Part shown: positions 5,828 through 12,105 of the stretch, one piece after another
Position numbering within the stretch: position 1 is the first letter of the stretch
Layout of the letters: each line of letters starts with the position of its first letter
Source: a virus
Taxonomy: Duplodnaviria > Heunggongvirae > Uroviricota > Caudoviricetes
Virus record (IMG/VR): IMGVR_UViG_2740892012_000013
Location: 1-43,002 of that record
Strand: one strand, 5' to 3'
DNA length: 43,002 bases
The notes under the pieces: model-generated
Told to the model about the DNA's origin: nothing
Databases searched by the model: none
The model's input: only the letters and a program-made list of their open reading frames with translations
Translations under genes and position numbers: made by a program

Positions 5828-5930
5828 GTTAAATCTCCAGATAGTCGCAGCACCCGTTGCGCCGCATATCTGGTTATTCTATTACCTGGAAAACCACATA
5901 TGGATAGAAAGGCTGTAAATACGAATAGAT

Positions 5931-5947
5931 ATTACCTTTCAGGTAAT
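5931..5947. promoter_or_regulatory. Operator-like 17-bp palindrome ATTACCTTTCAGGTAAT (perfect)
   Basis: Perfect 7-bp inverted repeat with 3-bp spacer; one of about 12 related sites in the window; in the divergent region between tailspike and the 6023 gene. Confidence 0.6.
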
Positions 5948-5983
5948 TTGCAAAACGTGCTGGATAGCAAACAAATTATTTGC

Positions 5984-6003
5984 TACTGTATAAATATACA
6001 GTT
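5984..6003. promoter_or_regulatory. LexA (SOS) box candidate TACTGTATAAATATACAGTT
   Basis: CTGT-N8-ACAG with AT-rich spacer, about 17/20 to the E. coli consensus TACTGTATATATATACAGTA; ends 20 bp upstream of the ATG at 6023. Confidence 0.65.
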
Positions 6004-6022
6004 ATTGCATGGAGAAGATAAG

Positions 6023-6280
6023 ATGCAGCAGTATCACTATCCACTGGAAGACGGATTTACCGAAAGGATTCACACGCCGGGAGGCGTCAGGTCACTGGTG
6101 GAGGGATCGCACTTGATGAAATTACTCCGGGATCTCGATAAGGATGGATTTAATGTCGATGGCCCACTTGCCGAACTGACTGCACTGATTAACTACGTCA
6201 CCAGCTCACAGATGTCTATGCAGGATCTGCAAACACATCTCGACTATTGTGCCGAACAATTACGAAAACAAACCACATAA
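6023..6280 (+). CDS. Small protein homologous to the shared C-terminal domain of the two antirepressors (ORF6C-like); candidate SOS-controlled antirepressor module
   Basis: SD GGAGAAG before ATG; 85 aa ...RIHTPGGVRSLVEGSHLMKLLRDLDKDGFNVDGPLAELTALINYV... aligns with ...SLIHSPSGVLGLTENSLLMNLLNQLQEDGHDVSGAAAELTTMFCYIV... of 7749-8444 and 9710-10648. Confidence 0.5.
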   Translation: MQQYHYPLEDGFTERIHTPGGVRSLVEGSHLMKLLRDLDKDGFNVDGPLAELTALINYVTSSQMSMQDLQTHLDYCAEQLRKQTT

Positions 6281-6286
6281 AGAAAA

Positions 6287-6302
6287 GGCCGCGAAAGCGG
6301 CC
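6287..6302. terminator. Hairpin GGCCGCGAAAGCGGCC between convergent genes (bidirectional terminator candidate)
   Basis: Perfect 6-bp GC stem with GAAA loop just after the stop at 6280 and just before the stop at 6304; identical hairpin recurs at 9643-9658. Confidence 0.45.
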
Positions 6303-6303
6303 A

Positions 6304-6810
6304 TTAACAGTCGTAAAATTCTGGGTCCCACAAACTTGCATCGCGCGGCATGGATTCTAACTTTTTCAGCCGCAAAATTCTGTCACACTCGACAACTAAT
6401 TTTTGCTTCTGCTCGTCAATTTCTACTGTCTTATGCGCTGGTTCATCCCAATAATCCAGAAGGAAGGCATGGCGTTCAGATGTGACCAGATAAATCACAT
6501 ACACGTCACTGGTTGGGATCTTTTTATGCTTGTTAGTGGTCTTGTCTTTCTTCCCAGACGCCCAGTTTTTCCAGCATTGTTCCGTACCGCTCTCACCAAA
6601 CTTGTCAGTATAGTTTCCGATGTTTAAGTGAACGTGGCGTATGTGATATTCCAGCATCTCTTTCGGTGGATCTCGAAACAGAGTGTCCTTTCCGAAATCC
6701 TTATGATGACCGTAGCGCCAGTGATCTATGAACGCGTTTTTGATAGGTATTAGCTCAGGGTCCTTCCCAAAAATTCCAGGGTGAACCAACCCCTGGAATT
6801 TATTCGGCAT
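6304..6810 (-). CDS. YafO-family-like toxin candidate (paralog 1)
   Basis: From ATG at 6810: ...FIDHWRYGHHKDFGKDTLFRDP...HIRHVHLNIGNY...YVIYLV...AFLLDYWDEPAH; pattern matches my recollection of E. coli YafO (GRDALYD...RVAHIHL...HLVYC...WLLIAILKPEPH). Paralog of 8881-9393. Confidence 0.55.
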   Translation of the reverse strand: MPNKFQGLVHPGIFGKDPELIPIKNAFIDHWRYGHHKDFGKDTLFRDPPKEMLEYHIRHVHLNIGNYTDKFGESGTEQCWKNWASGKKDKTTNKHKKIPTSDVYVIYLVTSERHAFLLDYWDEPAHKTVEIDEQKQKLVVECDRILRLKKLESMPRDASLWDPEFYDC

Positions 6811-9943: not shown

Positions 9944-10648
9944 ATAACCATAACATTTTGTCTGTGTTTTAATTGCCTCACGAAGCGCATCTAACATCTT
10001 GACTGCCACTTCATCATTCTCTGATGCAGATCCAGCAGGGAGATACTCCCCTTCAAGCGGAACCCGAGCAACAAGAGACAACGCTTCGGCGAATTGATCT
10101 TCATCAATTTCTTTGTACGAACAGCCAAAATGAGATTTCAGTGACGACCACATGGTGATCATCGCCTTAGCCTGTTTTTCTTTTGGCAGAGACTGACCGC
10201 GACTCATGACGAGTTGTTTAATGGCTTCCTGCTGTTCAGTGGTGATTTTACCCGGCAACGCCTTTTTAGCTTTGCGTGGGTTAACTACATGGCCTTTAGT
10301 CCAGTAATCGTAGAGCACATCGTCACACTCTTCCTGATACTGGATTACCTTGTCGCGGATTTCAGGGCGTACTTTGTTTGGACTGATGCTGTTCAACCAA
10401 GCTGCCAATTTTCGTAAAGCCATACAAATCATGGCTTGCACCCCACCGGCAGAAGGTATGGTGATTTCCACCATACCCTTCGAGAAGCGTTGAGAAATCT
10501 TCTTATGTTGAGATTTCCAGTCTAGCCCCATTCCCTCAACGATAGGTTTCATTGGGGTATACGGTTCACCGTTGTGATTGACAACATAAAGCTCTGCGCC
10601 GTGGAATGGCACGTTGATAGTAGATACCGCTGTTGCTATACTCGTCAT
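9710..10648 (-). CDS. Antirepressor (AntA/Ant-like N-terminal domain plus shared ORF6C-like C-terminal domain)
   Basis: N-terminus INVPFHGAELYVVNHNGEPYTPMKPIVEGMGLDWKSQHKKI is AntA-like; SD AGGAAT; second gene of an arc-ant style operon; C-terminus shared with 7749-8444. Confidence 0.75.
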   Translation of the reverse strand: MTSIATAVSTINVPFHGAELYVVNHNGEPYTPMKPIVEGMGLDWKSQHKKISQRFSKGMVEITIPSAGGVQAMICMALRKLAAWLNSISPNKVRPEIRDKVIQYQEECDDVLYDYWTKGHVVNPRKAKKALPGKITTEQQEAIKQLVMSRGQSLPKEKQAKAMITMWSSLKSHFGCSYKEIDEDQFAEALSLVARVPLEGEYLPAGSASENDEVAVKMLDALREAIKTQTKCYGYPLKPGYRSLIHSPSGVLGLTEHSLLMNLLNQLQEDGHDVSGAAAELTTMFCYIVGVSKCLRDIQTHAEYINDKAGFF

Positions 10649-10720
10649 GTCGTTAATTCCTATACGTAGTTTTACGATACTGAAGCCCTGACGGTCTGGC
10701 CACCGTTGGGCTTCGCTGTT

Positions 10721-10888
10721 TTATGCCACGCTATTCTTCTCACCAGTGAGTCCATACACTTTCCTCAGCTGATAGATAATCTCTGTATTGAACTTTCGGC
10801 ATTCTTTTTCGCCATTTCTTTCAATAGCTAACTTCACATCGTCCGGAAAACGAACTCGTCGTTGACACATCTCTTTTGCTTTTTGCAT
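10721..10888 (-). CDS. Arc-like ribbon-helix-helix repressor
   Basis: ATG at 10888 with SD AGGGGA; MQKAKEMCQRRVRFPDDVKLAIERNGEKECRKFNTEIIYQL aligns with P22 Arc (FNLRWPREV...NGRSVNSEIYQRV, from memory); directly upstream of ant. Confidence 0.6.
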   Translation of the reverse strand: MQKAKEMCQRRVRFPDDVKLAIERNGEKECRKFNTEIIYQLRKVYGLTGEKNSVA

Positions 10889-10902
10889 TTCATATCCCCT
10901 TA

Positions 10903-10961
10903 GCCCCACGGTGGGGCAAAACAATTGTCACACCGTGCGTCATTGATGTCAAGCACACGGT
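10903..10961. promoter_or_regulatory. Divergent arc / mnt-like control region with palindromes (candidate RHH operators)
   Basis: GCCCCAC-G-GTGGGGC perfect palindrome (10903-10917) plus CACCGTG / CACGGTG elements in the 120-bp gap between divergent RHH genes. Confidence 0.45.
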
Positions 10962-11008
10962 GAGGCATACTTCAATCATTGCAAGTAACTCAATATTTGG
11001 TGAAGAAC

Positions 11009-11440
11009 ATGAGCAGAGAAGATCCACAACTAAGGATCAGACTTCCCGTTGAAGTAAAAGAAAAAATAGAAATTTCTGCAAAAGCCAATAAGCGATCAAT
11101 GAACGCTGAAATAGTACAACGTCTTGACACCAGCTTTCTGAAAGATATTCATGAAGATGACGTAATTTCTGCTTATGAAGCAAAAATTATTGCAAACAAT
11201 GCACGGCATGAAATATCAAATATTATTTTCAAAAGAACCTTTAATGAAATTAATAAGAAAATAACACTTGGACATACAAGTTTTTATATAAACCTTAATG
11301 ACCTTGAACTGGAATCACTTGCAGATAATGATTACCAGATCATCTTTGAAAAAACATTTAATAAGCTCAATGAACTAGGTTACATCATCTGTGAAAACTC
11401 ATGGGATGCAGATGGTTTTGGAATTGAAATACCTGAATAG
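11009..11440 (+). CDS. Mnt-like ribbon-helix-helix protein with ~90-aa C-terminal extension
   Basis: PQLRIRLPVEVKEKIEISAKANKRSMNAEIVQRL aligns closely with P22 Mnt (PHFNFRMPMEVREKLKFRAEANGRSMNSELLQIV, from memory); divergent from arc; AT-rich codon usage. Confidence 0.55.
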   Translation: MSREDPQLRIRLPVEVKEKIEISAKANKRSMNAEIVQRLDTSFLKDIHEDDVISAYEAKIIANNARHEISNIIFKRTFNEINKKITLGHTSFYINLNDLELESLADNDYQIIFEKTFNKLNELGYIICENSWDADGFGIEIPE

Positions 11441-11530
11441 GAAGAACAAAAGGCGTGTACATATTACACGTCTTTAATACAATTGAAAAACGCCACATTA
11501 CTGATGTATGTTACAACAAGGAGCGATATT

Positions 11531-12094
11531 TTGAAAACCATATCTATATTAAAGGTTGCATTAGGCGTCGCTATTATTTTGACTCTCTCAATATTGTTTT
11601 ATTTTTACCACAAAAAAAATGCTATTGCTCTTGATGGTCACGCGGCAAACTCATTTTTCTCAGAGTACATAGTGCCGCTATCAGGAAGCGGTATAACAAA
11701 TAAATATACTGACTATGACATCAAATATGGAATTGATGATGGGGAGACTATTGTATTACATGTAATCATTAAAAACCTAATGACAGTAAATAAAAATACA
11801 GACTTCAACGATAAAAATACAATACATCACAACAACAGCAAAACATTAATTTCTTATAGTAGCAACATCTATACGGATAAATACCTAAAATACATCTCAG
11901 AAGATACAATAAAAGCAACCAGCGAAAAGTTAAAAAACATATATTGTGCATCCGGCAGTTTTCACAAATTATCGCCGCAGGAGCGTTTATTCTACGAAGC
12001 AAGAAAACAACGTAAGTCAATAATATTACATTATTATGCTGATTCAGGGGAGTCACTCATATTTAATATTGGGGTTTCCCCTGAATCATGCTAA
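11531..12094 (+). CDS. Membrane-anchored protein at the SieA position (superinfection-exclusion candidate)
   Basis: TTG start 7 nt after strong SD AAGGAG; N-terminal TM helix (ISILKVALGVAIILTLSILFYFY); very AT-rich, Asn/Lys/Ile/Tyr-rich; sits between mnt-like gene and ejection proteins. Confidence 0.45.
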   Translation: MKTISILKVALGVAIILTLSILFYFYHKKNAIALDGHAANSFFSEYIVPLSGSGITNKYTDYDIKYGIDDGETIVLHVIIKNLMTVNKNTDFNDKNTIHHNNSKTLISYSSNIYTDKYLKYISEDTIKATSEKLKNIYCASGSFHKLSPQERLFYEARKQRKSIILHYYADSGESLIFNIGVSPESC

Positions 12095-12105
12095 AGGCGT
12101 TTAAC

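Follow-up and report, generated by a model that had tools for sequence, protein, structure and literature searches.

What does a prophage keep in a block of genes lying between two of its virion genes: defenses deployed on behalf of the lysogen, or switches that act on its own immunity, with passengers attached? The question is raised by positions 5828-12105 (hereafter the island) of a stretch of 43,002 nucleotides (nt) of viral DNA (IMG/VR record IMGVR_UViG_2740892012_000013, positions 1 to 43,002; hereafter the window), which the initial annotation took for the defense/moron hotspot of a prophage and the likeliest seat of an undescribed system. By its sequence the window is a phiV10/TL-2011b-like Uetakevirus (epsilon15-like) prophage of Escherichia coli, and the closest DNA relatives of the island are found in the Escherichia phages TL-2011b, EC.W1-9, ZX5, and phiV10 (epsilon15-like podoviruses of the genus Uetakevirus). 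We find that the island is a genuine hypervariable accessory hotspot. We further propose that it is probably an immI-type anti-immunity and accessory region of this prophage, in which three antirepressors, each under a different circuit, are combined with exchangeable cargo. Its 11 genes, here denoted A to K in order of position, lie on both strands, and every one of these open reading frames (ORFs) is intact.

The antirepressors A, D, and H and their control circuits

Sequence comparisons identify the same Ant domain of approximately 85 residues in three proteins of the island, namely A, D, and H; antirepressors had been recognized here initially, but the 'second antirepressor' spoken of then proves to be an undercount. 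The product of A (6023-6280, plus strand; phrog_450) is a small Ant protein of 85 amino acids (aa) that is 88% identical to the annotated ant product of the Salmonella phage SPC32H and matches chain E of PDB entry 5D50 ('Anti-repressor protein') with E=1.3e-47. D (7749-8444, plus strand; 231 aa) joins an N-terminal Bro-N domain (Pfam, E=2.3e-21) to a C-terminal, predicted Rep-binding Ant domain, its last 89 residues being a full-length copy that is 37% identical to A and matches chain E of 5D50 at E=1.2e-14. H (9710-10648, minus strand; 312 aa) is a chimera of an N-terminal P22_AR_N part (Pfam, E=2.5e-45) and the uetakevirus Ant domain: it is 40% identical to the Ant protein of P22 over residues 1-212 only, no Pfam match to P22_AR_C was found in H nor any similarity to P22 Ant past residue 212, and its C-terminal third is a copy of the Ant domain near-identical to that of D. 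Aligned with A along the full length of the latter, the C-termini of D and H show 37-39% identity. The same C-terminal domain occurs fused to ORF6N in E. coli relatives (loci L034, L051, and L089 of our comparison set; cluster c42), and a pRha-domain protein is found at the same position in Serratia and Klebsiella relatives (L092/L094 and L100-L102). Judging from these architectures, the Rep-binding module is combined with at least three N-terminal families (Bro-N, P22_AR_N, and ORF6N), or stands alone.

The reference point for this domain is the repressor-antirepressor pair of SPC32H, our comparisons with which are based on its GenBank annotation, PDB 5D50, and secondary citations. The Rep protein of SPC32H occupies palindromic DNA in tetrameric form, and this tetramer is broken when Ant, itself a tetramer, engages two Rep dimers (PMC9638917); LexA control of Ant synthesis is established for such phages (PMC7380047). 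The window encodes a Rep homolog (rep, 36789-37373, accompanied by a cro-like gene at 36404-36634), which matches chain A of 5D50 ('Repressor') at E=4e-42. By analogy to the SPC32H ortholog, the Ant domain of A, D, and H would bind Rep and break up its DNA-binding tetramer. The LexA-Ant-Rep switch of SPC32H was reportedly described by Kim & Ryu in 2013.

The sequence upstream of A points to a dual gate formed by LexA and a Rep-type operator. A perfect LexA box, CTGTATAAATATACAG (5986-6001), lies 21 nt before the ATG of A, and 87 of 90 related loci from five genera retain it, 21-24 nt ahead of the start codon; 40 nt upstream of it stands a Rep/Cro-type operator, TTACCTTTCAGGTAA (5932-5946). This arrangement resembles that of SPC32H in the small Ant with a LexA box directly upstream, in the Rep homolog, in the TTACC-N5-GGTAA sites around rep and upstream of ant, and in the position of the locus between the tailspike and internal virion protein genes. 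In contrast, the SPC32H island consists of ant and a 46-aa membrane gene (~0.66 kb), whereas the window carries the Ant domain three times, twice fused to N-terminal domains of a DNA-binding type (Bro-N and P22_AR_N). A further observation concerns the specificity of this pair: between the prophage and SPC32H (L099), identity amounts to 88% for Ant and to only 42% for Rep, with no change in the operator half-sites. It may be a conserved surface of Rep that Ant recognizes, which would permit cross-induction between heteroimmune relatives.

The Bro-N antirepressor D is preceded by a leader in which a Rep-type operator is followed by antisense RNA elements. A promoter-like site (TTGAAA-18-TATCAT) and the operator that it abuts, TTACCTTTGCGGTAA (7465-7479), together span 7436-7479 on the plus strand and stand ahead of two elements on the same strand, viz., an isrK-like small RNA/leader element (7516-7591; Rfam RF01394, 72.3 bits against a gathering score of 50, E=1.7e-14) and a C4 antisense RNA (7616-7701; Rfam RF01695, 77.7 bits against a gathering score of 45, E=1.9e-14). 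The former holds the C4 targets a1 (7541-7547) and b1 (7557-7564) as well as an intrinsic terminator, and a second set of targets, a2 (7705-7711) and b2 (7733-7740), follows C4 (7705-7740, plus strand), with b2 lying over the Shine-Dalgarno sequence of D. The C4 loops, b' (7659-7666) and a' (7673-7679), with the sequences CCTTTTAG and ACGCCAA, display exact complementarity of 7-8 nt to a1/b1 upstream and a2/b2 downstream, and the leader as a whole (270 nt) folds far below shuffled controls (z = -4.55). Together with the sar RNA described below, these are three Rfam-significant regulatory RNAs that the initial annotation had not listed.

The tandem of isrK and C4 precedes the corresponding antirepressor gene in all nine loci tested (the window, L002, L008, L009, L011, L034, L041, L092, and L093), be its N-terminal domain Bro-N, pRha, or ORF6N. 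Across these nine, the b' loop occurs in at least six sequences and the a' loop in two, and the compensating change is present in every target copy detected (b1 was not found in L093 and L041). This covariation of loops and targets is strong comparative evidence for a functional antisense pairing with specificity classes, and Uetakevirus prophages may accordingly comprise several antisense specificity classes of the immI type, in the manner of P1 and P7. The layout of a1/b1, C4, and a2/b2, with b2 over the ribosome-binding site, matches the c4 design of the immI region (c4-icd-ant) of P1 and P7, to the extent that the latter is summarized in the literature (Citron and Schuster 1990, summarized in PMC7313666); the same isrK/C4 arrangement has been published for the isrK-orf45-anrP locus of Gifsy-1 (PMC4825925) and for the APSE phages (PMC7313666), and the window resembles these loci in having the tandem ahead of an antirepressor gene of the Bro-N kind. 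The window differs from P1 and Gifsy-1 in that its antirepressor ends in the uetakevirus Ant domain and in that the promoter also abuts a Rep-type operator. One relative departs from the pattern: in L005 (2897-3181) the place of the isrK/C4 leader of other loci, directly ahead of the Bro-N gene and overlapping it, is taken by what RefSeq annotates as a 'TacA family antitoxin'. We considered that this gene might be a mis-called RNA leader and dropped the idea, as Rfam gave no isrK or C4 there; L005 may possess another kind of leader or a genuine additional gene.

The control region of H reproduces that of P22 in mirror image. Both in order and in orientation, the genes H, I, J, and K and their flanks correspond to the P22 immI region (gene 16 - sieA - mnt - arc - sar - ant - gene 9), with homologs of Mnt and Arc, a sar RNA, the P22_AR_N domain, and an Omnt-like palindrome; the equivalence to sieA-mnt-arc-ant proposed initially holds for all of these, and fails for SieA. 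The Arc-like repressor I (10721-10888, minus strand; 55 aa) is 33% identical to P22 Arc (E=4e-5) and has an Arc-like PHROG match. The Mnt homolog J (11009-11440, plus strand; 143 aa) consists of a ribbon-helix-helix domain (Pfam Arc, E=1.2e-14) and an extra C-terminal part, and is 30-40% identical to the mnt genes of P22-group phages in tblastn comparisons; P22 Mnt has 83 aa, which leaves an extension of ~45-60 aa at the C-terminus of J. The sar antisense RNA (10650-10717, plus strand; Rfam RF00262) scores 45.2 bits, barely over the gathering score of 43 (E=6.2e-7), and spans the arc-ant intercistronic region with the geometry of the annotated P22 sar and a terminator at 10693-10712. A near-consensus Pant-like promoter (TTGACA-17-GACAAT, 10952-10924, minus strand) has just downstream of its -10 element the palindrome GCCCCACGGTGGGGC (10903-10917; 10903-10952 with the promoter), which has the CCACGGTGG core in common with the annotated Omnt of P22, AGGTCCACGGTGGACCT. 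The window departs from P22 in that the C-terminal third of Ant (P22_AR_C) is replaced by the uetakevirus Ant domain, in that the host phage is epsilon15-like, and in that the sieA position holds an unrelated orphan protein, K (11531-12094, plus strand; phrog_8033), which is membrane-anchored. K was considered as a SieA and rejected, having no similarity to P22 SieA (E=0.34); among 50,697 phage records it occurs only in TL-2011b, and it forms 4 near-identical clusters in 5.8 billion proteins.

Operators, cargo slots, and the docking junction

Against an expectation of 0.73 copies (and no more than 3 in any of 100 shuffles), the window contains 14 copies of the palindrome TTACC-N5-GGTAA, four of them in the island, at 5932, 7340, 7465, and 8511. 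Two pairs of sites flank rep, one between cro and rep (36671/36719) and one at the leftward early operon promoter (37431/37493), where site 37493 abuts the -10 directly. The same geometry of -10 and operator is seen at the OL-like and island promoters: the motif abuts the -10 of the promoter-like sites for the C-B operon (TTGCCA-18-TAGAAT at 7386-7357 with the operator CTACCTTTAGGGTAA at 7340-7354; 7340-7386 in all, minus strand), for the D leader (7465), and for E-F-G (8511). In SPC32H the same palindrome is the commonest of the genome: three copies lie downstream of rep, another two to three separate it from cro, and a single one precedes ant. Because the motif flanks rep and abuts the -10s of the island promoters, we infer that it is the Rep/Cro operator and that the transcription units of the island are repressed in the lysogen. 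There are ten further sites beyond the island (26827; 30008/30026; 34326/34388; 36334; and the two pairs around rep), which are mostly intergenic and often paired, and of which the one at 26827 is identical to the site upstream of the small ant gene; their distribution suggests a genome-wide Rep/Cro regulon that reaches the late-gene region.

These elements suggest a mechanism in which A would be governed by LexA and a Rep-type operator, D by a Rep-type operator and the isrK/C4 leader, with the C4 loops pairing with the ribosome-binding region, and H by the P22-style Mnt/Arc/sar module. In the lysogen, Rep, LexA, C4, and Mnt would hold everything low. Upon an SOS response, LexA cleavage would free Ant A, which would remove Rep, and the loss of Rep would in turn derepress D and the cargo operons, resulting in positive feedback and in cargo expressed at induction or fresh infection. 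The operator placement thereby suggests that cargo is expressed on induction or infection instead of in the lysogen, a distinction that bears on how 'moron' or defense hotspots of prophages are to be read. If this model is right, a single repressor would be wired to SOS/LexA, to a P1-type antisense RNA with exchangeable loops, and to a P22-type Mnt/Arc/sar module, making this a compact natural system for the integration of several induction and anti-immunity signals.

Each regulatory module is of a described kind, namely the Ant/LexA switch of SPC32H, the C4-isrK RNAs of P1 and Gifsy-1, and the immI region of P22, and no new principle is involved. The undescribed system that had been anticipated here is accordingly not to be sought in the regulatory part, which combines three published circuits; only the toxin-partner cassettes and the rest of the dark cargo could harbor one. 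As far as our searches show, what seems to be undescribed is the convergence of three circuits in one prophage via one Rep-binding domain, the exact cassette dock formed by a promoter and operator, and the pairing of YafO-like toxins with unclassified partners.

The variability of the island was gauged in a comparison set anchored on gene A, for which 5 genome loci and 80 viral contigs were retrieved; boundaries of the island could be drawn in 77 of the sequences, counting the window. It ranges from 645 bp to 7.5 kb, that of the window being the third largest, and the smallest contain nothing but gene A or, as in SPC32H, A and one tiny membrane gene. The 77 islands show 72 distinct gene orders, and their ORFs fall into 68 clusters, ~45 of which are credible gene families. 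The variable hotspot that had been predicted is thus borne out by the alignment of relatives, among which neither the content nor the order of genes is constant. Coverage of the island reaches 80% in no phage record and in none of 5,426 complete E. coli genomes, the highest values being 67% for TL-2011b and 77% for one E. coli strain, the ant gene of which is broken by IS66; the gene combination of the island is absent from sequenced phages and from these 5,426 genomes. The hotspot also gathers transposable elements: insertion sequences (IS) of the IS66 and other families interrupt ant or sit within the island in some relatives (L003, 5065-8507; L037; L063).

The main slot opens downstream of D, at a docking site of cassettes formed by a conserved cargo promoter (TTGGCG-18-TAATAT) and the operator abutting it, TTACCTTAAAGGTAA (8511-8525; 8482-8525 in all, plus strand). 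When representatives of 11 cassettes are aligned, homology is continuous over the 3' end of D, the promoter (consensus TTGCAG-17-TACTAT), and the operator, and similarity among relatives stops immediately after GGTAA. At least 11 alternative cassettes occupy this slot, and the operator precedes the cassette in all 56 cases. On the right, the slot is often bounded by gene G (9475-9636, plus strand; phrog_3117 and phrog_14503), coding for a small secreted or membrane-associated peptide of 53 aa with a signal peptide, followed by a bidirectional terminator; G is found in many islands after differing cassettes. A second slot, on the minus strand, is situated between A and the promoter of D, and a third, at the right end, contains in relatives lipoproteins, small membrane proteins, or the immI block. 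Further cargo includes DUF4760, DUF2335, and many proteins lacking a Pfam or PADLOC match. The comparative data define a precise exchange junction along with a catalog of ~45 largely unannotated cargo families.

The use of these slots is illustrated by the nearest relative, TL-2011b (NC_019445, gp39-gp47), which matches 67% of the island at 96.7% identity and shares A, D, G, the H-I-J-K block, and the same inverted repeat. In contrast, its C-B slot holds a different gene, annotated as a remnant, and its E-F slot is taken by a 59-aa partner and a third YafO-like variant (~32% identity to F).

Toxin-like gene pairs and the role of the cargo

Two toxin-like pairs had been noticed in the island from the outset, and both are upheld as paralogous YafO/RelE-like genes, each overlapping an upstream partner. 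The genes B (6304-6810, minus strand; 168 aa; phrog_1651) and F (8881-9393, plus strand; 170 aa) code for proteins with 46% identity (E=4e-38); the antitoxin-like partner C (6800-7327, minus strand; 175 aa; phrog_9503) overlaps B by 11 nt, and the antitoxin-like partner E (8568-8894, plus strand; 108 aa; phrog_5933) overlaps F by 14 nt. An exhaustive profile search over 1.84 billion representative proteins recovered only 64 clusters (50% identity) of this toxin family. Among its 47 full-length representatives, 29 match the YafO_toxin model of Pfam (best E=6.8e-23), and the residues F29, G42, H62, and H125 are invariant in all of them. The predicted fold, tentatively RelE/HigB-like, has the HigB and RelE toxins as its best structural neighbors; a PDB sequence search with F returned chance matches only. 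We conclude from these affinities that B and F probably represent a divergent YafO branch of the RelE/ParE superfamily and, going by what is known of the family, they may function as ribosome-dependent mRNA endonucleases. The likeness to the YafN-YafO pair of E. coli and to RelE/HigB extends to the overlapping upstream partner; the window pairs differ from YafN-YafO in the greater length of their toxins (~170 aa) and in their predicted control through a phage repressor operator instead of LexA/dinB.

Prophages of Serratia and Klebsiella have these gene pairs, overlaps included, at the corresponding place in the island. Members of the C family are near-invariant over their final 38 residues and have the N-terminal half replaced outright: a Klebsiella partner is only 24% identical to C overall, has the same C-terminus, and is paired with a toxin that is 78% identical to B. 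E retains both its N- and C-termini at an overall identity of 34%, and F remains 69% identical. Since the C-terminal segment accompanies the toxin through exchanges of the N-terminal half, it most likely binds and neutralizes the toxin, as in type II antitoxins.

Several observations weigh against this reading of an anti-immunity region with repressor-gated toxin-antitoxin cargo. With respect to the toxins, F scores 19.7 bits against the YafO_toxin model of Pfam, the cut-off of which is 25 (E=9.5e-4), and B is without a Pfam match. With respect to their partners, C and E show no similarity to each other in BLASTP, and neither has a match to a known antitoxin family in Pfam or NCBIfam, or a significant one in PADLOC; in this they and a third, 59-aa type of relatives differ from YafN/Phd-YefM. 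A hidden Markov model of the C-terminal segment of C ranks E and the 59-aa partner families second and third among the 68 clusters, at non-significant values (E=0.19 and 2.5), so that a C-terminal motif common to C, E, and the 59-aa type is only suggestive. The AlphaFold2 model of C is helical with no compact or confident fold (pTM 0.20). In the D leader, an ATG within the C4 stem opens an ORF of 35 aa (7620-7727), which stops 21 nt before D and is reminiscent of Gifsy-1 orf45. Its relevance is doubtful: a conserved small ORF like orf45 or icd, such as the Gifsy-1 model requires within C4, was sought in the leader and not found, the ORF of relatives being 14-55 aa long and unconserved in sequence, and in having no icd-like gene the window appears to differ from P1 and Gifsy-1. 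Finally, the case for Rep binding and repression at the island operators comes entirely from the distribution of the motif and the geometry of the promoters, and the operator half-site is identical in SPC32H though its Rep is only 42% identical. Covariation of Rep and operator specificity is therefore not usable as evidence, the half-sites of the two phages being the same.

Among the competing explanations, the one that fares best, although we consider it distinctly less probable than the anti-immunity reading, is that the island is primarily a defense/moron hotspot, the products of which are made by the resident prophage and protect the lysogen by abortive infection or superinfection exclusion, perhaps through an undescribed system. 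The position is fixed and the genes found there vary extremely, many alternative cargo products are membrane, lipoprotein, or secreted proteins or form two-gene cassettes of unassigned role, and K sits at the sieA position in AT-rich DNA. The toxins belong, moreover, to the RelE superfamily, and a role in abortive infection is known for type II toxin-antitoxin pairs. However, K is unlike SieA, and PADLOC-DB v2.0.0 yielded only weak matches (E above 3e-4) and no coherent system for 10 of the 11 ORFs (all except the Arc-like I), and no matches for 10 alternative cargo proteins; an NCBIfam scan of 10 of the 11 ORFs gave weak incoherent matches or none. Defense, as claimed initially, thus found no support in these searches. 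Expression of the moron type is likewise disfavored: all 56 cassettes downstream of D lie behind a promoter abutting the operator that flanks rep, which predicts repression in the lysogen.

Two further explanations concern the toxin-like pairs, and we hold each of them to be unlikely. In one, the pairs are addiction or commitment modules of the prophage, produced once Rep is gone, with a labile partner and a stable toxin, such that prophage loss or an aborted induction leads to arrest. The type II layout of overlapping genes with the partner upstream is what such modules display, the modular partner retains a conserved toxin-linked C-terminal segment, and the promoters are apparently Rep-gated; most relatives, however, are without any such pair, which is hence dispensable, and simple addiction does not need two paralogous pairs. 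In the other, to which we give about as little credence, B and F do not inhibit growth and are early RNA-binding or -cleaving factors, e.g., for host shut-off or anti-defense, with C and E as regulators or chaperones. The predicted early expression under Rep/Cro control would suit this role, as would a divergent branch that is larger than canonical YafO and has sub-threshold Pfam similarity, and partners without a known antitoxin DNA-binding domain. Against it stand the invariance of His62, His125, and other residues in the 47 representatives, the 29 of these that are recognized as YafO_toxin, and the HigB and RelE toxins as best structural neighbors; the tight co-inheritance with overlapping genes is most simply that of a neutralizing pair.

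The preferred reading, an immI-type region with exchangeable cargo, could be taken a step further, to a proposal that we regard as speculative and improbable as it stands. The promoter-operator downstream of D would be a dedicated repressor-gated dock, the at least 11 kinds of cargo of which are switched on only upon removal of Rep, and the three YafO-like families with their three unrelated partners, which have in common only a short C-terminal segment, would constitute a new class of induction-coupled toxin-antitoxin weapons rather than defense morons expressed in the lysogen. Such weapons might serve to penalize an induction that is aborted, to switch off the host, or to outcompete other prophages resident in the same cell.

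That the island is decaying mosaic debris of illegitimate recombination with no coherent function, as might be supposed from the GC mosaic of adjacent modules (32% to 57%) and from the IS insertions and pseudogenes of some relatives, is effectively refuted by conservation and covariation: all 11 ORFs are intact, the overlaps of the gene pairs are kept across genera, the RNA loops covary with their targets, and the LexA box and the operators are present at 87 of 90 loci and 56 of 56 junctions, respectively.

Flanks, composition, terminators, and the inverted repeat

As first described, the island is set between tail and internal virion protein genes and has genes on both strands. Its left neighbor is the tail-fiber gene (3176-5827, minus strand), and its right neighbor is the gene for an internal virion protein of 1004 aa (12106-15120, minus strand; PHROG 'internal virion protein'); the integrase gene is at the right end of the window. 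The LexA box, operator-like sites, inverted repeat, terminators, and AT-rich right end reported from the first reading all lie where they had been placed or close by. The GC fraction is 0.31-0.33 across 11.0-12.0 kb against 0.478 for the whole window; J and K (11009-12094) have 32% and 33% GC, respectively, beside neighbors of 46-53%, and this block has the look of a recent acquisition from an AT-rich source. Neither tRNA genes nor tandem repeats of any significance were found in the island, and promoter-like hexamer pairs show no enrichment (10 against 14.4 expected).

Terminator-like sites number 14 against 5.8 +/- 2.8 expected. They include two near-identical bidirectional intrinsic terminator hairpins, one between A and B (GGCCGCGAAAGCGGCC, 6287-6302) and the other between G and H (9642-9659). 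Late transcription on the minus strand, from the internal virion protein gene to the tail-fiber gene, must traverse the island including both hairpins; as it meets two strong intrinsic terminators, the tail-fiber gene would need antitermination or a promoter of its own.

The inverted repeat results from the near-identity of the C-terminal Ant domains of D and H, the genes of which are convergent. Its left arm (8176-8467) comprises the Ant-domain coding sequence of D and 22 nt of 3' flank, and its right arm (9686-9978) the Ant-domain end of H and flank; over the core of 270 nt (8176-8445/9709-9978) the arms are 91% complementary, and a 22-nt arm continues past both stop codons. The E-F-G cassette between the arms (cf. 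window positions 8446-9708) is inverted in L041 (about 7.0-10.2 kb), where it lies between two convergent antirepressor genes, and forward in L081; both orientations fit recombination across the 270-nt inverted Ant-domain repeat.

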